64,000 bases of DNA from Dehalococcoidia bacterium (GTDB lineage: Bacteria > Chloroflexota > Dehalococcoidia > Lucifugimonadales > G958296245), in contig CBDHEI010000002.1 in NCBI GenBank assembly GCA_965262055.1, forward strand, positions 3,220,347-3,284,346, read 5' to 3'. Position 1 is the first letter of the stretch. Each line of letters begins with the position of its first letter. The notes beneath the pieces were generated by a model. It had not been told where the DNA came from and did not search any database. It saw only the letters and a list, made by a program, of their open reading frames with translations. Position numbers and translations under genes: made by a program. Positions 4,543-52,922 of this stretch are shown piece by piece.

Positions 4543-4878
4543 ATGAAGCCGAATACGATCAGGAAGGCCGCTATCAAGATAGGTGTTGGGGTGCCTGCCA
4601 TGCTGGTACTGGCGCCCGCAGTGCCGTGGTTGGTGCTCGTACTCCACGAGCCGCTGACCGACTGGCTGACGTGGATAATGCCCGGGGTATGGGCGGACGC
4701 ATACCAGGAGGAGAGGGTGTCATTCGGGATAGTGGACAAGATGCAGTCCCTCGGAGAGTGGGTAGCAGCCGGGGGCGTGCTGACGGCGCTCGTTGTGGCG
4801 ATAGCGTCAGGGGTTGCCTTCGTGGTCTGGGGCGCATTCCATCTTCTGGGGGAGATTGCCAGGGGAGAGCGCGAGTAG
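4543..4878 (+). CDS. small hypothetical membrane protein (two hydrophobic segments)
   Basis: AGGAG RBS, 111 aa, two long hydrophobic stretches, in line with the vWA array. Confidence 0.7.
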   Translation: MKPNTIRKAAIKIGVGVPAMLVLAPAVPWLVLVLHEPLTDWLTWIMPGVWADAYQEERVSFGIVDKMQSLGEWVAAGGVLTALVVAIASGVAFVVWGAFHLLGEIARGERE

Positions 4879-4932
4879 GCTAACGAGTCAGGTCTGACGG
4901 GTAATGGAAGACTTCGTTCAGGAGGTGTTGAA

Positions 4933-6534
4933 ATGAGGCAATTCAGGTTCACGTTGATTCTTGGGTTAGCCGCGCTGATCACGGTTCTCGCGGCCTGTAC
5001 AAGGGAGGTGGTCAAAGAGGTGCAGGTAGAGGGGGTGGTCATGGAGCAAATGGTGAAAGAGGGCACCGTAGAGATGATGGCCGAGTTTGACAGGGGCGAG
5101 TCTGAGGGGTTCAACGCCATAGGCGGCACTGCGACTGTCAACGACGAGCCCTACGACCTCACATTCTTCCAGCACTATGGGGTAAACCCCTTCATCGACA
5201 CCGAGGACGACCACCTGTCCACTTTCGCCATGGACGTGGACACGGCGTCGTACACCGTGACGCGGCGCTTCCTGCAGGACGGCAATCTGCCGGACCCGGA
5301 CTCGGTGCGTGTCGAGGAGTTTGTGAACTTCTTTGAGCAGGGCTACGACCCGCCCACGGTGGGCGCCTTTGCCATGCACTTCGAGGGTTCGCCTTCACCG
5401 TTCGGCGGCGGCAACCATTGGCTCATGAGAGTAGGCCTGCAGGGGAGGTCGGTTGACCCAGGGCAGAGGAAGGACGCGACGCTCATCTTTGCCATCGACG
5501 TATCGGGCTCCATGGCCCGCGAGGACAGGCTGGGGATGGTCAAGAGGGCCCTGCAGATGCTCGTCGATGAGCTAAGTCCCAATGACGAAGTTGGGATCGT
5601 CGTCTACGGAAACAGCGGGAGGGTTGTCCTGGAGCCCACGAGCGGCGACAACAAAGAGATGATAATGAGCGCAGTGCGCTCCCTGACCCCGGCAGGGTCG
5701 ACCTACGTGGAAGACGGGTTGAAACTGGCGTATGGGTTGGCAGGTGAGCGGGCGCGGCAGGAGAGGCCAGGTCGGATTACCCGTGTCCTTCTCCTCTCGG
5801 ACGGCGTGGGCAACGTCGGCCGGACCGGCGCGGACAGCATCCTGCGTCAGATCAGAGACCACGTTGAAGAGGGCGTAACCCTCACGACGGTCGGTTTCGG
5901 TATGGGCAACTACAACGATGTACTTATGGAGCGGCTCGCCAACGACGGAGACGGGAGCTATTTCTACGTCGACTCCCTCACAGAGGCGAGGCGCATATTC
6001 TCAGAGAACCTCGTGGGCACCCTGCAAGTTATCGCCAAGGACGCCAAGGTGCAGGTAGACTTCAACCCCGATGTGGTCAGTCGCTACAGGCTGCTCGGGT
6101 ACGAGAACCGCCGAGTTGCTGACGAGGACTTCCGAAACGACGCCGTGGACGCGGGCGAAGTAGGCGCCGGACACAGCGTCACGGCGCTCTACGAGCTGAA
6201 GCTGCGCGACGACGCCGACGGGGCGTTGGCGACCGTGGTGCTGCGCTATGAGGACCCCGACACCGGGGAAGTCTCCGAGCTGAGCCGCGAGTTTCAGCGC
6301 AGCGAGCTCGCTGCCGGGTTTGAGGAGGCATCGCCGAGGTTCCAGATGGCGGCGGTGGTTGCAGAGTACGCCGAGCTGCTGCGCGGTAGCTACTGGGCTC
6401 AGGACGGCAGCCTGAGCGCCGTCGTCCCGGAGGCCATGCGCGTTCGAGACCTGCTCGCGGAGGACATCAGCGTCGCTGAGTTCGCCGACCTCTCCGCTCG
6501 CACGGCGAAGGTATGGGCGACTATGAACCAGTAG
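4933..6534 (+). CDS. YfbK-like vWA lipoprotein (vWF_A N-terminal, vWA, DUF3520-like C-terminal)
   Basis: Lipobox VLAAC; STFAMDVDTASY; VRVEEFVNFF; MIDAS AIDVSGSM; LLGYENR; DAGEVGAGHSVTALYE. Confidence 0.92.
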   Translation: MRQFRFTLILGLAALITVLAACTREVVKEVQVEGVVMEQMVKEGTVEMMAEFDRGESEGFNAIGGTATVNDEPYDLTFFQHYGVNPFIDTEDDHLSTFAMDVDTASYTVTRRFLQDGNLPDPDSVRVEEFVNFFEQGYDPPTVGAFAMHFEGSPSPFGGGNHWLMRVGLQGRSVDPGQRKDATLIFAIDVSGSMAREDRLGMVKRALQMLVDELSPNDEVGIVVYGNSGRVVLEPTSGDNKEMIMSAVRSLTPAGSTYVEDGLKLAYGLAGERARQERPGRITRVLLLSDGVGNVGRTGADSILRQIRDHVEEGVTLTTVGFGMGNYNDVLMERLANDGDGSYFYVDSLTEARRIFSENLVGTLQVIAKDAKVQVDFNPDVVSRYRLLGYENRRVADEDFRNDAVDAGEVGAGHSVTALYELKLRDDADGALATVVLRYEDPDTGEVSELSREFQRSELAAGFEEASPRFQMAAVVAEYAELLRGSYWAQDGSLSAVVPEAMRVRDLLAEDISVAEFADLSARTAKVWATMNQ

Positions 6535-6566
6535 ACACCGGATGCCGCCGCGCTGCGGTTGCTAAA

Positions 6567-8268
6567 CCCGAATCCACCGAAGGACACCGATGGACGGCGT
6601 GAGGACAGCGGCAGGGTGGGTGAGGGAGCTACAGGGGAGATGGCTGGGCTCATTGGGGTAGATTGGATCGGCGAACGGTCTTCAGTCGCCGCAGAGGGCC
6701 CCTATGGCCCTCTGCGGGAGCTGCGATGCGCGGGATGGCGAGAGAATACGCAGCAGGGAACTCTCTCGGACCGGGGTGGCACGAGTTTGCAGGGAAGTTG
6801 GGTCAGTTGCAGGCTGGCAGTTCAGGCGGGGAGTGGAATGGCTCGCAGCCGGGCCATGGCGCGAGTGAACTGGGTTTCCCAAGTCCAATGCTGGGGAAGA
6901 TGCAGGGTAAGGCGGCGCGCCGAGCGGGTGATCCGTCCCACCAGAGCGAAGACCCGCCGCCTGAGGGTCTTGGTGGTCACGGTCCGTTCGGCCAGACCGA
7001 TGCGCGCTGTCCAGCGGGCGAGGTTGTGTGCCATCACCTGCACCGCCAGCCAGGCGCCGTTGGCGGCGAAGCGCCCCGAGGGGAGATGGTTGAGTCCGAC
7101 GCCGTGTTTCAGGTCTCGAATGGCGTTCTCGATCTCGGCGTGGCGGCGATGATCGGCCTCCAGTTCCAGGGTTTCCCCGTCCCGGTCGGTGATGAAGCCG
7201 TGATAGCTGTAGGTGGCGAAGAGGGCCAACTGGGAACCGGGCGTGGGCTTCACCCGCCGGACGATGAGCCGCACCGGCGCGGCGTCGGGTTCACTCTGGA
7301 AGGGGGTATAGGTGGTCTCGGCCACATCGGCGGCGCCGTCCATCCAGTAGGGAATCGGCGTCCAGTCCTGCTCGGGGATCGCCTCAATCAACTCCCGCAG
7401 GCCTTTGTGCTGGCGGATGGTGATGGAGAAGCGGACACCCATCTCGCGGCAGACGGCGACGAGAGCGTGGGCGTAGAAGCCGCTGTCGGCGCGCACCGTG
7501 AGTTGGCCGCTGGCCCCACCGTAGCGCACCCGCCCCACCGTTTCACGCAGGAAGTGGGCAGCGCCGCGAGCGGTGTTGGCACGGCCCTCGCGCAGCCGGG
7601 ACATCAGCACGTCGCCGGTTCCGGCGGCGATGGCCAGCAGTGGGTGATAGCCCCGCGCGCCGGTGTAGTTGTGGTGTCGCGCCCCTTCTTTGTCCAGTCC
7701 ATAGGTCTCGCAGATGGTGGAGTCCAGGTCGATGGTAAGGGGCGAGTCGCCGGGTCCGGCCCCAGCGGCCCATGCGCGTGCCAGCAACTGGCGGCTCACC
7801 CGGTCGAGTTGACGGACATGCCCCCACCGGAAGCTGCGCAGGAAGGTGCCCAGGGTGGATGGCGCCTTGACCACGCAGCCGAGAACACCGACCGTCCCAC
7901 CAGCACGCAGCGCATCAGCGTCGTCGATGAAGTCGCCGCCCGCCAGCGCGGAAGCGACCAGCGTCAGCAGTTTGTCCCCCGTGTTCGCCCGCCCCGGTGC
8001 GCAGCCGAGGTCGAGGTGATGGTCGACGAGTTCCCGCAGGCCCAGGTGCTGTGCAAGGGTGGCCGGCAGGAGCAGGCCGGCATTGGCCACCAGGCGGTGG
8101 TCGTCAAAGACGACGCGGATACGGTCGGGATTGTTCTGTGGCAGCATCTACTGGGTGCTCCTTGTTTCCGGGCGGTTTTCTGTTTCAAAACCATTCTCCC
8201 AGATTCAGAGGAGCACCCTCTGGCTTCTTCAAGGACTGTCCCCAAAGTCGTCTTTCGGTGGATTCGGG
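6567..8268 (-). mobile_element. IS1380-family element A, copy 1 (1702 bp)
   Basis: 15-bp TIR CCCGAATCCACCGAA at both ends; 5-bp direct repeat CTAAA at 6562-6566 and 8269-8273. Confidence 0.95.
6822..8147 (-). CDS. IS1380-family DDE transposase (441 aa, intact)
   Basis: IDLDST, VRADSGF and AEIENAIRDLK catalytic-type motifs; near-identical to 42404..43729 and 57806..59131. Confidence 0.93.
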   Translation of the reverse strand: MLPQNNPDRIRVVFDDHRLVANAGLLLPATLAQHLGLRELVDHHLDLGCAPGRANTGDKLLTLVASALAGGDFIDDADALRAGGTVGVLGCVVKAPSTLGTFLRSFRWGHVRQLDRVSRQLLARAWAAGAGPGDSPLTIDLDSTICETYGLDKEGARHHNYTGARGYHPLLAIAAGTGDVLMSRLREGRANTARGAAHFLRETVGRVRYGGASGQLTVRADSGFYAHALVAVCREMGVRFSITIRQHKGLRELIEAIPEQDWTPIPYWMDGAADVAETTYTPFQSEPDAAPVRLIVRRVKPTPGSQLALFATYSYHGFITDRDGETLELEADHRRHAEIENAIRDLKHGVGLNHLPSGRFAANGAWLAVQVMAHNLARWTARIGLAERTVTTKTLRRRVFALVGRITRSARRLTLHLPQHWTWETQFTRAMARLRAIPLPA

Positions 8269-48080: not shown

Positions 48081-48839
48081 CTATGGGCCCCTGGGGAGGG
48101 CGGTGAAGTCTATGTGCCCGGAGGCCGGGTAGTAGCTGCCGGGTGGGTTGGCGTCGGCGGAGACCCAGTAGTCGGCGGGGTCGCGCCAGGTGTCGACGCC
48201 CTTGCGCATGGCTTCGCGCTCGTAGTAGCTGGGACCGGTGGGCGGGTCGGCGGGTGTGGGCCGGGGCTCTTCCGGGTACTGGAGCGGTGGCGGGTCTGCG
48301 CTCGCTTCGGGCTCTTCGGTCGAGGCGGCCGGGGGCGTTGGGCGGGCGGGCGGTGGCGGCTCCGGGTCGTCGCGCCGTTGAGGGTCGTCGTTCCAGGAGT
48401 CGGCGTCGCGCCGGGCCTTGGCGGCGGCCCTTGCTTCTTTCCTCTCCTTGTAGGCGGAGTAGAGGTCGCACTCTGCTGTGAGGGCTTCGTCCAGCTTGTC
48501 GGGGTCGTCCTCGTAGGCTTGGTGGAGCGTATCGCCGATGCCGTGGGGGAAGGTCTCTTCGTCCTCGTCCTCCTCGTCCTCCTCGTCGTCGTCGCCGTCG
48601 TCGTAGTAGTGGTCGCCGCCGTCGGAGTGGTCGTCTCGGCAGAGGCGCAGGAGCTCTTTGGCAGCCGAGAGCCTGTGGTGGGGCTTGAAGCCGTCGAGGT
48701 TTCCGTGCATGACGTCGACGAGGAATCGTACGACGAGTCTGCCGCCGTCGGTCTCGTCGCGGGCGATGTCGGCGAGTGAGGGGTATCTGTCCTCGCTGGC
48801 GTCGTCGTTGTGTTGCGCGGGCTGCGCTTCGTAAGACAT
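48081..48839 (-). CDS. hypothetical protein: small N-terminal helical domain, then acidic and Pro-rich tail
   Basis: DETDGGRLVVRFLVDVMHG...HRLSAAKELLR; strong promoter directly upstream. Confidence 0.7.
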   Translation of the reverse strand: MSYEAQPAQHNDDASEDRYPSLADIARDETDGGRLVVRFLVDVMHGNLDGFKPHHRLSAAKELLRLCRDDHSDGGDHYYDDGDDDEEDEEDEDEETFPHGIGDTLHQAYEDDPDKLDEALTAECDLYSAYKERKEARAAAKARRDADSWNDDPQRRDDPEPPPPARPTPPAASTEEPEASADPPPLQYPEEPRPTPADPPTGPSYYEREAMRKGVDTWRDPADYWVSADANPPGSYYPASGHIDFTALPRGP

Positions 48840-48846
48840 GTGTTCT

Positions 48847-48876
48847 ATAATAGGGGGTGGCGCAGGGGTTTGTCAA
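48847..48876 (-). promoter_or_regulatory. promoter TTGACA-N18-TATTAT, ATG 7 nt downstream (leaderless geometry)
   Basis: -35 at 48871-48876, -10 at 48847-48852, no RBS. Confidence 0.75.
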
Positions 48877-48891
48877 GTGGGTCCACGAACG

Positions 48892-49519
48892 GGTAGTGTC
48901 TCAGTTTGCAAGTCATGGAACGCAGGCCACCCACGGGTACGGTCGATGGACAGTCACCCACCTCGGCTCTGTCGTCCTCTCACGTGAAGGATAGGTGCCA
49001 CCTGTTGTGGGCCGAGCATACCCAGAGAACCACCGAGGAGATGTAGAGCGGTATGTGATATTGTAATGGCCGTGCCATTTCCCATCGTCGTAGTAGCGAT
49101 AGGGACCAATGTGCTGCTCCAGGGCCGCGAGCTCCTCAGCATCGACGTCCAGGGGAATGTCCACGCCGTTGACGGCCATCCTGTAGCTGTTTCCCTTGAC
49201 CTCAAACATGACGTGATTGGTAGCCAGAGGGCCGCTGTCAAAGTCGGTCAGACTGCCTGAGTCCAAGCGAATCGCGGGCTCTCCCCAACTCTGGTAGAAA
49301 CTCTTAACCACACTGTCGTTCTCGTAAAGCCTTCCGTGTCGAGCCTCATATGATGATTCAAATAATGTATAGCGAAAATCGACTGTGAAAGTCCCGTCGG
49401 ACGACACCAGGACTAGAAGGTCCATACCTTTGTCGGGCACACTTCGCACCATGAAGCCATATTGGAACCCCGGCAACCCCGGCGCCTAGCTCGTCAGATT
49501 GGCAAACTGAGACACTACC
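48892..49519. mobile_element. 628-bp non-autonomous element with Mutator-superfamily-like (IS256/ISH6-type) ends and passenger DNA
   Basis: Perfect 18-bp TIR GGTAGTGTCTCAGTTTGC; 8-bp direct repeat CACGAACG at 48884-48891 and 49520-49527; no transposase inside. Confidence 0.9.
48913..49476 (-). CDS. passenger ORF or gene fragment, beta-sandwich-like (DUF1080/LamG-like by eye)
   Basis: Fills the TIR interior; YGFMVR...LVSSDGTF...ATNHVMFEVKGNSYRMAVNG; lower GC than the flanks; weak TTG start without RBS. Confidence 0.45.
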   Translation of the reverse strand: MPGFQYGFMVRSVPDKGMDLLVLVSSDGTFTVDFRYTLFESSYEARHGRLYENDSVVKSFYQSWGEPAIRLDSGSLTDFDSGPLATNHVMFEVKGNSYRMAVNGVDIPLDVDAEELAALEQHIGPYRYYDDGKWHGHYNITYRSTSPRWFSGYARPTTGGTYPSRERTTEPRWVTVHRPYPWVACVP

Positions 49520-49601
49520 CACGAACGAAGGGGCTATATGCCGCCCGCCCCGGACGGTCTCGCAAGCCGATATACTCTGGGTCAGCCATCCTCGGAGGAG
49601 C

Positions 49602-50999
49602 ATGGGCATGAACGTCATATGGATCGTCGCGGACACGTTCAGGCAAGACCACCTCGGGGCGTACGGGAAGGCTGAGATAAGCACGCCCTCCCTCGACACG
49701 CTGGCCTCGAAGTCGATGCGGTTCGAACGGCACTACGCGGCCGGCTTCCCGACGATGCCGACCCGCGCCGACCACGCTACGGGCCGGTGGACCATGTCGT
49801 TCATGGGGTGGGAGCCGATACCCGACGAGGCCACAACCCTTGCCGAGATACTGGCCAGGCAGGGCGTGCACACGGCGGCCATGGTGGACACGCCCTTCTA
49901 CCTGCGCGGCGGAATGAATTACGACAAGGGCTTCCAGACCTTCTCTATGTACACGGGCCAGGAGGGCTCAGTCACCCGTCTGATAGAGGCCCACCACCAC
50001 GAGTCCCGCGATGCCCGGGAAGCCTGGCGCTTCGAGGCGGACCGGAACGTGGCCCAGACGGTCAACCGCGCGATGGAGTGGCTCCAGCGCCACTACAAAG
50101 AGGACTTCTTCCTCTACGTGGACACCTGGGACCCCCACGAACCCTGGGACGCGCCGAGCTACTACACGGAGATGTACATGCCGGACTACGACGGCGAGGT
50201 GGTGCAGCCCATATACGGCCACTGGCATGACGCGCATGGCTTCACGGACAGCCGCGTCCGCAAGGCGCTGGCAACCTACAAGGGCGAGGTTACGATGGTC
50301 GACACCTGGGTAGGCCACCTGCTGCGCGCCGTGGAAAACATGGGGCTGATGGAGAATACGGCCATCATCTTCACATCAGACCACGGATTCTACTTCGGGG
50401 AACACGGCGGGCTTTTCGGGAAACTCACCTTTGCCAAGGGCCCTGACGGCTCCCTGTACCAGCACGGCGACCCGAATGCCATGTGGGACTTTTCGCCACT
50501 GTACGAGGAAATAGTCCTCGTGCCGTTGCTGGTCTACGTGCCCGGCGCGAGCCCAGGCGCTTACAGAGGCTTGACTTCGGCAGTGGACGTGATGCCTACC
50601 GTCCTGGAGGCTATGGGGCAGGGAGTCCCGAATTGGGTAGAGGGCGAGTCCCTGCTCCCGAAGGTTCACGACCCGTCGTTGCCTGGCCGTGACTTCACCG
50701 TTTCAACGGTGCCGTTCGCCAATCCGGGGGATTCCGTTGACTCGGTGGACAACATCAGGCGCCGGCTCGGCAGGGCGCCCGTGACGACGGTCACGACGGA
50801 CGAGTGGTCCCTGTTGTACAGCATCGACGCCGGGATGTCGCAGCTTTACCATCTGCCGTCGGACGCTGGGCAGCACAGCGACCTGTTAGGCCAAAACCCC
50901 AGCGTCGCGAGGGCCGTGCACGAAAGGCTCTTGAAGTTCATGGCGGATACTCGCCTGCCGGAGCCGCTGAGGGACCCGAGGGCCGAGCTCCGGCTATAG
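49602..50999 (+). CDS. sulfatase-fold hydrolase with Thr at the Cys/Ser nucleophile position
   Basis: ADTFRQDH, TMPTR, DTWDPHEPW, SDHG, LYEE; GGAGGAG RBS. Confidence 0.85.
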   Translation: MGMNVIWIVADTFRQDHLGAYGKAEISTPSLDTLASKSMRFERHYAAGFPTMPTRADHATGRWTMSFMGWEPIPDEATTLAEILARQGVHTAAMVDTPFYLRGGMNYDKGFQTFSMYTGQEGSVTRLIEAHHHESRDAREAWRFEADRNVAQTVNRAMEWLQRHYKEDFFLYVDTWDPHEPWDAPSYYTEMYMPDYDGEVVQPIYGHWHDAHGFTDSRVRKALATYKGEVTMVDTWVGHLLRAVENMGLMENTAIIFTSDHGFYFGEHGGLFGKLTFAKGPDGSLYQHGDPNAMWDFSPLYEEIVLVPLLVYVPGASPGAYRGLTSAVDVMPTVLEAMGQGVPNWVEGESLLPKVHDPSLPGRDFTVSTVPFANPGDSVDSVDNIRRRLGRAPVTTVTTDEWSLLYSIDAGMSQLYHLPSDAGQHSDLLGQNPSVARAVHERLLKFMADTRLPEPLRDPRAELRL

Positions 51000-51046: not shown

Positions 51047-52922
51047 TCCCAGATTCCCCACCTAACATAGTTGGTGTGGCCTTCGTGGATTTACGCCCGT
51101 GTTGAGTATCGATTCGGTGGTTCCATATGGTCGGATCGGGCCGTAGGTAGGACCTTGGCCGAAGACTTTGAGGGTATGGGCAGCGTAGCCGCACCGATTA
51201 TGGCTGTCCTCAGGCCGAAGAAGGCATGGCGCAGCCTGGGCGACCTTGCTGAGTCGCCTTCAACCGATGCACAGACAGGACCGCTTATGGTTGGTACGGC
51301 TCGGCGGACAGCGCCAATATCCTCTGACGTGCCCTGATCAACAACTCGTATGAGGGATGGCCCCGCGCCAGACGGATGATCAGCTTCCTGGCGTGTCGCA
51401 TCACCCGGCCCGGAAGGGCGATCAGGGCGAAGCGCACTGCCTTGAGACGCTTGCTCACCCACTGTCCTCCCAACGCCAGCCGCTTCATCGCAGAGCTCAG
51501 GTTGAAGGCCAGCACCGCTATGGCCCACCATGCGGCGTTGGCTCCGAACAGCCCCGACGGGAGCCTGCCCGCAGCCAGGTCACTCTTCAGGACGCTGTGG
51601 ACCTGCTCGCCTTTACCGCATCTCTGCCTGTACCACCGGATCATCTCATCTCCCGGAAGGTCTCGGTTGGTCACCAACCCGGAGACCTTGTGCCAGGCTC
51701 CGCCGGCCAGCCTCATCACGGGGAAGGGCAGTTCCAGCTGCAGTTCCATTCCCGGCAGAGGCTGTTCGCTCAGCGGCTCCCTGATAGCGATGAACCGGTA
51801 TTCAGGGTTCTTCTTGCTGTAGGCTATCCAGTCTGGTACGAAGTTCACCTCCGCCCACTGTTGACCTGTCTCGACCCAAGTGGCGCCCAGTCTGCGGTGC
51901 GGGGCATGCCAGTCTTGTTCGGCAACCTCGGACACCGCGCGCCTGAACTCCGGCGTCACGTTGAGCCCTACCGCAAACTCGATCACTCCGAAGCGCTCGT
52001 CTCTGCCCTCGGCGCAGTACCGCAGCAACTCGTGCTGATACCCAGCCGCGTCCGACCGCAGCATCACCTTGTCCACCGCACAAGGCAGATGCTCCAACGC
52101 TTCGGTCAACACTCGCAGTTGCTGATAGCCAGCAGGTACGTTGCCGTCCCGAAACTCCGAATGCACTATCAACTCAGCCTCGGCCCAGTAGGTCGTCAGA
52201 GGCTGATACGCCTTGTACTTCTTGTAGCTGTAGAGCGCCTGCTGCTTGTGCGTCTCCACCAGCGTGGCGTCCATGTCCAACGTGGCTTGAGCGCAGGGCG
52301 AACGGCTCTGTACGAAGCTCACCATATCGGCGTTCACCTTATGCAGACCCCCCAGCGCTTCGTTGGGTGAAGGTATGAACGCTCTGTGAGCTTCCCGACT
52401 GGACTCCTCGCCCGCCTCGTGGAATCTCTCCAGGTACCGGAACACCGCCGACTCCGATGGCATGCTCCGCCGACGCTCTACACGCCATCGCTCTTCCAAC
52501 GCTCTACGCTCTCGACGACCCATCCCATAGCTCTCGACTTCCCGAAGCACCCTGCACAACCCCGCGTCCTTCTCCAGAACATCCAGATCGACCACTGACT
52601 CACCGCCTGCCAGGTTCAGCAGTATCAGCGAGCTGACCACTTGGCTGTCCGTCCAGCCCTGACCACACTCCCGCAGTCCCACGTGGCGCTCTACCGACGA
52701 CCTCAAACCTGCTGCGTGCATCAACTCCAAGTACGTCATCATCCCCGCCATCGCCGTCATGCCCGGCGAGCTCTTCTCCTGCTCGTACTGGAACGGCAGA
52801 ACCCCTTGCTTCATAATAGGTGCACCTCGTTGGTGATCGTTTCTCTCTTCCAAGAAACATCTTAGCCCCCTTCACGGCGGGCTCCAACGAGGTCTTCTTC
52901 TTCTCTAGGTGGGGAATCTGGG
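51047..52922 (-). mobile_element. IS1380-family element B (1876 bp)
   Basis: Perfect 17-bp TIR CCCAGATTCCCCACCTA; 4-bp direct repeat TCTT at 51043-51046 and 52923-52926. Confidence 0.92.
51285..52814 (-). CDS. IS1380-family transposase (509 aa), distinct from element A
   Basis: TLDMDATL, LRSDAAGY, GKGEQVHSVLK, PSGLFGANAAW. Confidence 0.88.
   Translation of the reverse strand: MKQGVLPFQYEQEKSSPGMTAMAGMMTYLELMHAAGLRSSVERHVGLRECGQGWTDSQVVSSLILLNLAGGESVVDLDVLEKDAGLCRVLREVESYGMGRRERRALEERWRVERRRSMPSESAVFRYLERFHEAGEESSREAHRAFIPSPNEALGGLHKVNADMVSFVQSRSPCAQATLDMDATLVETHKQQALYSYKKYKAYQPLTTYWAEAELIVHSEFRDGNVPAGYQQLRVLTEALEHLPCAVDKVMLRSDAAGYQHELLRYCAEGRDERFGVIEFAVGLNVTPEFRRAVSEVAEQDWHAPHRRLGATWVETGQQWAEVNFVPDWIAYSKKNPEYRFIAIREPLSEQPLPGMELQLELPFPVMRLAGGAWHKVSGLVTNRDLPGDEMIRWYRQRCGKGEQVHSVLKSDLAAGRLPSGLFGANAAWWAIAVLAFNLSSAMKRLALGGQWVSKRLKAVRFALIALPGRVMRHARKLIIRLARGHPSYELLIRARQRILALSAEPYQP

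Follow-up and report, generated by a model that had tools for sequence, protein, structure and literature searches.

A transposase-less 628-bp unit with a truncated passenger gene is very probably a deletion derivative of an IS1-family transporter insertion sequence

Between a sulfatase gene and a gene for an acidic protein, a 64-kb stretch of a Dehalococcoidia genome (hereafter, the window: the whole 64,000 nucleotides that were analysed) carries 628 bp of coding DNA enclosed by the ends of a mobile element, with no transposase gene inside. How did a gene fragment come to lie between such ends, and to which transposase do the ends belong? The initial annotation answered with a Pack-MULE-like unit, i.e., with Mutator-type ends that capture pieces of genes and are mobilised in trans. 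Below, we follow the ends, their autonomous relatives and the cargo gene to a different origin. The features of the locus, in window coordinates, are as follows; L133 and L136 are two loci with full-length relatives of the element, and P0005 and P0029 are the respective passenger proteins.

48081-48839, minus strand: acidic-protein gene (open reading frame, ORF)
48847..48876, minus strand: putative promoter of the acidic-protein gene, near-consensus TTGACA-18-TATTAT, 8 bp outside the duplication and spared by the insertion
48884..48891, no strand: left target-site duplication CACGAACG, exact repeat of 49520-49527
48892..48914, plus strand: transposase-distal terminal inverted repeat (TIR), core GGTAGTGTCTCAGTTTGC, repeat of ~23 nt; an end common to at least 120 loci, with the same junction in L133 and L136
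48913..49487, minus strand: cargo, a 5'-truncated passenger gene (ORF 48913-49476, passenger homology to 49487), 65% identity to P0005 and 76% nucleotide identity to L136
49490..49510, plus strand: transposase stub CTC GTC AGA TTG GCA AAC TGA = LVRLAN*, from a 26/31 alignment with the left end of L136
49497..49519, minus strand: transposase-proximal TIR, 18-nt core 49502-49519, of the GCCAAT type that adjoins transposase genes, defined by TIR pairing
49520..49527, no strand: right target-site duplication CACGAACG, exact repeat of 48884-48891
49602..50999, plus strand: sulfatase gene, divergently transcribed (ORF)

The boundaries of the unit are clear. Both the perfect 18-bp TIR GGTAGTGTCTCAGTTTGC (48892-48909 on the plus strand and 49502-49519 on the minus strand, 0 mismatches) and the exact 8-bp duplication CACGAACG (48884-48891 and 49520-49527) were re-found where they had been described. 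Pairing of the window TIRs reaches ~23-24 nt with 2 mismatches, and a search for GGTAGTGTCTCAGTTTGC with up to 3 mismatches gave no further match within the 64-kb window, while 0 of 100 dinucleotide-preserving shuffles of the window contained two or more TIR matches. The chance of an 8/8 identity between the duplications is ~1.5e-5; with the last C of the TIR included, the duplication is 9 bp long (CCACGAACG). Nearly all of the interior is filled by a single ORF of 187 codons with a TTG start (48913-49476, minus strand). The GC content of the 628-bp element is 0.553, as compared with 0.634 for the window and 0.62-0.72 for the flanks, and the GC3 of its ORF is 0.63 vs. 0.85-0.86 in both neighbouring genes. 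Taken together, the TIRs, the target duplication and the deviant GC and GC3 values tell us that the element is genuinely bounded, foreign DNA; in this respect, the initial view of a real transposition product with a 187-codon frame of lower GC was correct. Its point of insertion is a divergent intergenic region of 126 bp (without the element), 8 bp from a near-consensus -35 box.

Nine copies of the element were recovered (the window, L001-L006, L129 and L130), 98.9-99.7% identical and all located at one and the same site. Variation within the element amounts to four sites in this population, which is too few for a selection test. At one position, 49516, the other eight copies have a C, so that their end reads GGTGGTG and the TIR match is 17/18. 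No second copy of the cargo ORF was present among 5.8 billion protein clusters, no intact IS1-type transposase of the group described below lies within the 64-kb window, and the organism of the window is absent from the TIR loci among the matches listed (at least 120). An unoccupied site between the sulfatase and acidic-protein genes is expected to read GTCCACGAACGAAGGGG. The check for such an empty site with a single duplication found none: the empty-site 22-mer had 0 matches in JGI metagenomes, and in two orthologous sulfatase loci (84% and 88% identity), the upstream region was either different or truncated. A 31-mer spanning the cargo/TIR junction likewise had 0 matches in JGI metagenomes. 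Among the recovered copies and related loci, there was also no undeleted (full-length) occupant of the window site.

The neighbourhood shows some mobility of its own. A 1,874-bp insertion sequence (IS) occupies window positions 51049-52922, with TIR CCCAGATTCCCCACCTA, a 4-bp duplication TCTT and an ORF of 522 aa (51285-52853, minus strand); its copy in L002 is annotated as DDE_Tnp_1_4, IS1380-like. The corresponding site is empty in L001, L003, L004 and L130 (GCATTCGTCTTCATAC), indicating that the IS1380-like element is active and polymorphic in the population. In L002, coming from one metagenome, a copy of the same IS1380-like element (5591-7470, equivalent to window 48887-48890) interrupts the 8-bp duplication immediately beside the distal TIR of the 628-bp element, with GAAC duplicated. 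The protein encoded at 48081-48839 (minus strand) is very acidic, with D/E-rich 9-nt tandem repeats of the GTCCTCCTC type at 48555-48628; its gene is predicted at 252-411 aa depending on the contig and is without a Pfam hit on record.

To which family do the ends belong? Searching for GGTRGTGTCTCAGTTTGC in one genome per GTDB species, we obtained at least 120 loci sharing the 17-nt end GGTAGTGTCTCAGTTTG. They come from Acidobacteriota, Alphaproteobacteria, Gammaproteobacteria, Nitrospirota, Planctomycetota, Chloroflexota, Bacteroidota, Binatia, Methylomirabilota and others. Plus- and minus-oriented ends were paired inside each locus to define elements, which, among the matches listed, measured 37-350 bp (a 110-bp class being common), 473-817 bp or 2,145-5,856 bp. 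Perfect 8-bp duplications accompanied at least 30 element pairs, and one had a 9/9 duplication. Conservation between elements is confined to the first 17 nt; past this point the two ends consistently differ, reading ...TTTGCC(A) on the transposase side vs. ...TTTGAAAT at the far end. Nine long elements among the matches listed contain an ORF of 286-297 aa abutting one TIR, and this ORF is carried by all of the long elements with a perfect duplication, again among the matches listed. Its last codons (...GCA AAC TGA, 'AN*') form part of the TIR.

The products of this ORF in L063 and L020 match Pfam DDE_Tnp_IS1 (PF03400) with 24.6 and 27.0 bits, respectively, against a cutoff of 24.1, and their best model is NCBIfam transpos_IS1 (E 5.5e-15 and 2.5e-15). 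The score of the latter, 56-57 bits, stays below the model's curated cutoff of 100, which places the group on a distant branch of the IS1 family. Transposase_mut gave no match at E<=0.01 in Pfam and NCBIfam scans of the transposases found within the same ends. Plasmid homologues from PLSDB (tblastn, 59-64% identical) are labelled 'IS1 family transposase' by PGAP. The Acidiphilium multivorum JZ-6 plasmid NZ_CP041717.1 (L139, 3267-5900) carries an element of 2,634 bp that shares these ends. It has a perfect duplication AAGCCGAG, a transposase that PGAP assigns to the IS1 family and four ORFs for hypothetical passengers; this copy from a cultured isolate adjoins a RES/Xre toxin-antitoxin pair. 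By the ISfinder convention, TIRs of the IS1 family begin with GGnnnTG. The window end, GGTAGTG, fits this pattern, and the 8/8 duplication has the 8-9 bp size of the family. The ends of E. coli IS1A, GGTAATGACTCC (GGTAATG) and GGTGATGCTGCC (GGTGATG), are identical to the window TIR at 10/18 and 7/18 positions, and the stop codon of insB is likewise found inside the inverted repeat (IR). Thus, the IS1-type DDE domain, the homologues named by PGAP and the IS1A-like ends assign the ends to the IS1 family and not to IS256/ISH6; within the former, they represent a distant branch whose members have a single ORF. The initial attribution to Mutator/IS256/ISH6-type ends has to be abandoned, given IS1-family cognate transposases in nine autonomous copies and no Transposase_mut match. 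The autonomous partner that a TIR search was expected to reveal does exist in other genomes, as copies of 2.1-5.9 kb, with none in the 64-kb window.

What do elements with these ends carry? The long ones hold 1.2-5 kb of genes unrelated to transposition. A domain scan identified a Fic protein (L063) and an inserted IS5-type transposase among them, and, judging by their translations, other ORFs look like a Clp/SppA-like protease, a DUF488-like protein, an AlbA_2-like regulator, an HNH protein and a nested IS1595-type transposase. The layout of a transposase gene plus passenger genes is what the ISfinder authors term a transporter IS, or tIS (PMC3129680, PMC9330008). Since the autonomous copies carry varied passenger genes, they are transporter ISs; L063 (with its Fic gene), L039, L049, L062, L115, L085 and the Acidiphilium plasmid element all have this layout, while the window element, being without a transposase, does not.

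Transposase-less members of the group fall into two sorts. Four of them are gene cassettes: L009 (817 bp, duplication 8/8) with a DUF4440/SnoaL gene, L090 (486 bp) with a GFA gene (E 1e-26), L055 (610 bp) with a Cas2-like ORF and L010 (255 bp, duplication 8/8) with a DUF1737 ORF. In all of these siblings the cargo is a complete gene and each time a different one, and so the question of whether siblings carry different cargo is answered in the affirmative. The other sort is small. Copies of 106-110 bp (L046, L059, L068 and L087) occur in one Acidobacteria MAG with differing duplications, and the presence of multiple short copies with differing duplications in a single MAG indicates that trans-mobilisation of non-autonomous group members is real. 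At the lower end of the size range, L106, L047 and L112 (37-39 bp) consist of only two abutting TIRs, the smallest possible derivatives, two of which have 7/8 duplications. Overall, one data set shows the whole series, from autonomous tIS through a form with a decayed transposase and the gene cassette to the MITE.

The decayed form in this series is L136 (8941-11428), an element of 2,488 bp with the full-length P0029 gene and, at the opposite end, a decayed IS1 transposase whose C-terminal remnant reads outward into the degenerate proximal end (tblastn E 4e-12 to 7e-11). That end, CGTAGCGTCTCAGTGTG, matches at 14/17 positions, and the flanks TGACCGCG and CGACCGCG form a 7/8 duplication. L136 is thus a transporter IS in which the transposase has decayed and the passenger is intact. 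A related genome has the element at the same chromosomal site (L133), where it is interrupted by an IS5-like insertion. The full-length gene closes with ...GCCTGCGTTCCATAA in both L133 and L136, and CTTGCAAACTGAGACACTACC comes directly after it; the L136 stop/TIR junction is TAA+C+TTGCAAACTGAGACACTACC, and the window junction, ...GTTCCATGACTTGCAAACTGAGACACTACC, has the same form, a stop codon + C + TTGCAAACTGAGACACTACC. On the other side, the proximal 31 nt of the window element, GGTAGTGTCTCAGTTTGCCAATCTGACGAGC, align with the left end of L136 at 26/31 positions. Within them, the final seven codons of the transposase gene can be read, as LVRLAN* in the window vs. LVEMAH* in L136. The stop codon of the stub (49490-49510) lies inside the TIR; intact copies end in ...ALAN* or ...ELAN*. 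Hence, the initial statement that the interior has no transposase remnant holds for the transposase gene as a whole, but not for these last codons, LVRLAN* at 49490-49510 on the plus strand. Past the 31 nt, the window sequence jumps to about passenger codon 277, with a possible 4-5-nt microhomology A[A/G]GCC at the junction. Both junctions can therefore be read against L136 (stub 26/31, then ~codon 277), and one internal deletion suffices to convert an L136-type element into that of the window. No intact parent with this passenger was seen, the transposase of L136 being decayed. We would also like to mention that the flanks of L133 and L136 are 92.8% identical over 6.9 kb, as compared with 79% in the passenger region (74% at the amino acid level, dN/dS ~0.25), so that the passenger either evolves faster than its surroundings or has been exchanged by recombination.

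The cargo itself corresponds to residues ~271-459 of P0005 and ~277-468 of P0029 and ends in ...PYPWVACVP*. It is the C-terminal (3') 41% of a gene for a secreted FN3 protein of 459-468 aa and has neither the signal/anchor nor the FN3 part nor the first conserved cysteine; the identity of the window ORF to the shared C-terminus (P0005 residues 271-459) is 65%, and the nucleotide identity to L136 is 76%. The donor gene was thus found in full length, in L133 (P0005) and L136 (P0029), and the interior is indeed foreign coding DNA and a gene fragment, as had been claimed, with a GC3 of 0.63 against 0.85-0.86 around it. A word-indexed homologue search had returned four proteins only (near-identical copies plus two partial homologues) and missed the full-length relatives, whereas an exhaustive profile search returned 26 proteins. 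The matched region is, in most of the longer ones, the C-terminal domain of FN3 proteins of 283-616 aa, laid out as an N-terminal hydrophobic anchor or signal, Pro/Thr linkers, one to three FN3 domains, a 'SNAYGNGC' motif and a domain ending in ...PYPWVAC(V/K)P. The cargo ORF had no match in Pfam or NCBIfam. An AF2 model from three sequences was unusable (pLDDT 45); that from a 12-sequence alignment is all-beta (pLDDT 64, pTM 0.67). Foldseek found nothing significant for it in the PDB (best E 0.29), its weak top matches being mostly ConA-like lectin folds, and one homologue has a sub-threshold Laminin_G_3 match. The resemblance to a beta-sandwich noted initially is in keeping with an all-beta model, but at a pLDDT of 64 and with no significant PDB match by Foldseek it is weakly supported; going by the model, an all-beta and possibly ConA-like fold, a 'beta-sandwich', is plausible.

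Copies of this family without any TIR (L134/L008, L007 and L135) are native genes, and their existence identifies the passenger as a cellular gene acquired by one IS lineage. For the same reason, the homologues in L007 and L008 were rejected as elements. L008 also contains an IS1595-family IS (4876-5840; 294-aa transposase with Zn_ribbon_IS1595 and DDE_Tnp_IS1595) that cuts the 5' end of the native homologue; its transposase was rejected as a partner, because it belongs to an unrelated IS that shares no ends with the element and truncates the L008 copy. In L134, which is orthologous to the L008 locus, the cargo homologue is intact (351 aa).

The window ORF is without internal stops. Comparing the fragment with the intact gene of L136 (dS ~0.9) gives a dN/dS of 0.20, close to the 0.22-0.25 between intact genes. 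Such values suggest that the truncation may be recent relative to the divergence or else that the fragment is still constrained.

All of this leads us to consider it very likely that the 628-bp unit is non-autonomous and derives, through internal deletion, from a transporter IS of the IS1 family. In the parent, the proximal TIR would have been followed by a transposase gene that read outward into this TIR, then by a short divergent promoter region, the passenger and a distal TIR. Its passenger would have been a membrane-anchored or secreted FN3 protein of 459-468 codons with a C-terminal beta-domain, the distal TIR following right after the stop codon. IS1-type cut-or-copy transposition would have placed an element of this lineage between the sulfatase and acidic-protein genes, producing the CACGAACG duplication. 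A single internal deletion, to which the comparison with L136 points, would have taken out all but the last 7 codons of the transposase gene, along with the intergenic region and the passenger up to about codon 276 (its first 59%), leaving a TIR, the 3' fragment of the passenger, the 21-nt transposase stub and a TIR. By this account, the element should still be movable by a cognate IS1-type transposase. Its truncated cargo gene is probably not functional. In form, the unit is a mobile insertion cassette (MIC) with a truncated gene as cargo: it has IS-type IRs around coding DNA unrelated to transposition, and it has no transposase gene.

Whether the deletion came before or after the insertion is about evenly balanced. 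We would give nearly an even chance to a deletion that took place elsewhere, the 628-bp cassette then moving in trans into the window site as a true MIC. The intact TIRs (18/18; 17/18 in the other population copies) and the perfect duplication agree with this, as does the mobilisation of transposase-less relatives in other genomes, including the cargo-bearing L009 (817 bp) and L010 (255 bp) with their perfect duplications; what speaks against it is one insertion site among nine samples, no cognate transposase within the 64-kb window and no second ORF copy among the 5.8 billion protein clusters. It is quite possible too, if somewhat short of an even chance, that a full-length transporter IS inserted at the window site and suffered the internal deletion in place, the 628-bp form never having transposed. 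A single copy at a single site is what such a history would leave. A simple internal deletion would also leave two ends of different type and a transposase stub attached to the proximal TIR, as seen in the element, and the dN/dS of 0.20 vs. 0.22-0.25 between intact genes suggests recent truncation. No observation counts directly against this order of events; the same structure is expected if the cassette moved after its deletion, and no strain with the undeleted form at the site was found. With all nine copies at one site, there is no sign that the 628-bp form itself ever moved. The initial idea of a non-autonomous vehicle mobilised in trans can thus be retained as far as the missing transposase, the gene-fragment cargo and the varying siblings are concerned, but nine copies at a single site do not bear out its movement.

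Two other origins would leave the deletion aside altogether. One is that a piece of a resident gene became enclosed by two independent insertions, of MITEs or solo ends, whose outer ends then moved the segment. Elements of 37-110 bp with these ends are abundant and could bracket genes, but we regard this composite origin as very unlikely: there are neither inner ends nor internal duplications, transposase coding sequence lies beyond the TIR on the proximal side, the cargo is not resident (GC3 0.63 vs. 0.85 in the neighbours), and the full-length form in L136 has an ordinary transporter-IS layout. The other is the initial proposal, a Mutator-like (IS256/ISH6) non-autonomous element that captured a fragment of a host gene de novo in the Pack-MULE style. 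The GGT start and the 8-bp duplication also fit ISH6/IS256 by rule of thumb, and the cargo is a gene fragment. Nevertheless, this origin is extremely improbable, for the cognate transposase is of the IS1 family with no Mutator domain, the junction between the 3' fragment and the TIR was inherited from an element with the whole gene, and the 5' junction adjoins the transposase stub and thus bears the mark of a deletion rather than a capture. The full-length gene lies already within the L133/L136 element, with the same stop/TIR junction, and the 5' break falls at the stub; the fragment thus arose by deletion. It is the truncated standard passenger of the L133/L136 IS lineage, from which one deletion yields the 628-bp form; an interior of this kind had been named at the outset among the findings that would refute the initial proposal.

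For annotation, this divergent promoter region should be recorded as holding the relic of an IS1-family cassette, and the ORF as a truncated passenger rather than a host gene. The category, a MIC derived from a transporter IS, is already known, and the element adds no new one. Its value is as a worked example of how a MIC originates and of the way in which IS ends carry small genes along, with both deletion junctions readable against a full-length relative; in addition, the ends of this IS1 branch are nearly invariant across many soil and water phyla. It is tempting to go further and suppose that the branch acts as a broad-host shuttle of single genes (in at least 10 phyla), that the window unit was mobilised in trans with its truncated beta-domain expressed and selected, and that deletion of a tIS makes it a functional analogue of Pack-MULEs. 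The cargo within the almost invariant 17-bp ends (GFA, DUF4440/SnoaL, Cas2-like, DUF1737 and the FN3 beta-domain fragment) would suit such a picture, which we nonetheless hold to be rather unlikely as a whole.

Finally, we would like to compare the unit with known systems. With IS256/ISH6, the group shares 8-bp duplications and G-rich or GGT termini; it differs in that no cognate transposase of these ends has a Transposase_mut domain. Like plant Pack-MULEs, the window element is bounded by TIRs, lacks a transposase and contains a fragment of a cellular gene, and cargo varies at the level of the group. Unlike Pack-MULEs, it has short TIRs and an 8-bp duplication instead of one of 9-11 bp, the fragment came from deletion of a passenger-carrying IS and not from capture, sibling cassettes hold whole genes instead of chimeric fragments, and the transposase is of IS1 and not of the Mutator superfamily; the eukaryotic relatives of IS1 are the Merlin-type elements, not Mutator. 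The likeness to the IS1 family extends to the GGnnnTG ends (GGTAGTG here, GGTAATG/GGTGATG in E. coli IS1A), the 8-bp duplication and a group transposase with HTH and DDE_Tnp_IS1 that reads into the IR and stops inside it. Full-length group members measure 2.1-5.9 kb, with unrelated passenger genes. The window element departs from this in having 7 terminal codons instead of a transposase, and the group departs from classical IS1 in its ~36% identity to InsB over a 39-aa motif, an NCBIfam score below the cutoff and a single ORF with no frameshift. The group would correspond to the 'ISMhu11-like' or transporter-IS type of ISfinder, a single-ORF branch of IS1 with passenger genes.

Same-group MITEs have the same 17-nt ends and 8-bp duplications and are non-autonomous as well, and they have amplified within single genomes. 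They are, however, 37-350 bp long and mostly non-coding, whereas the window element (628 bp) is almost all ORF. A MITE is small, non-coding and multicopy; here, 90% of a single-copy element is one gene-derived ORF. That ordinary MITEs carry no such cargo, as had been argued in favour of a new kind of unit, is true in itself, but transposase-less derivatives with cargo already have a name, MICs (PMC3129680). These are defined by IS-type IRs that flank coding DNA unrelated to transposition in the absence of a transposase (PMC3129680), as in MIC231 of Bacillus cereus, the Tn3-type cassettes of Xanthomonas and the qnrS2 MIC of Aeromonas (PMC3129680, PMC4337579, PMC5444012). The window unit differs from them in its ends, which are of the IS1 family and not of IS4/IS231 or Tn3, and in its 5'-truncated cargo with one copy at one site; it resembles them in the target duplication that flanks the unit, and it may be mobilised in trans, as is presumed for MICs.
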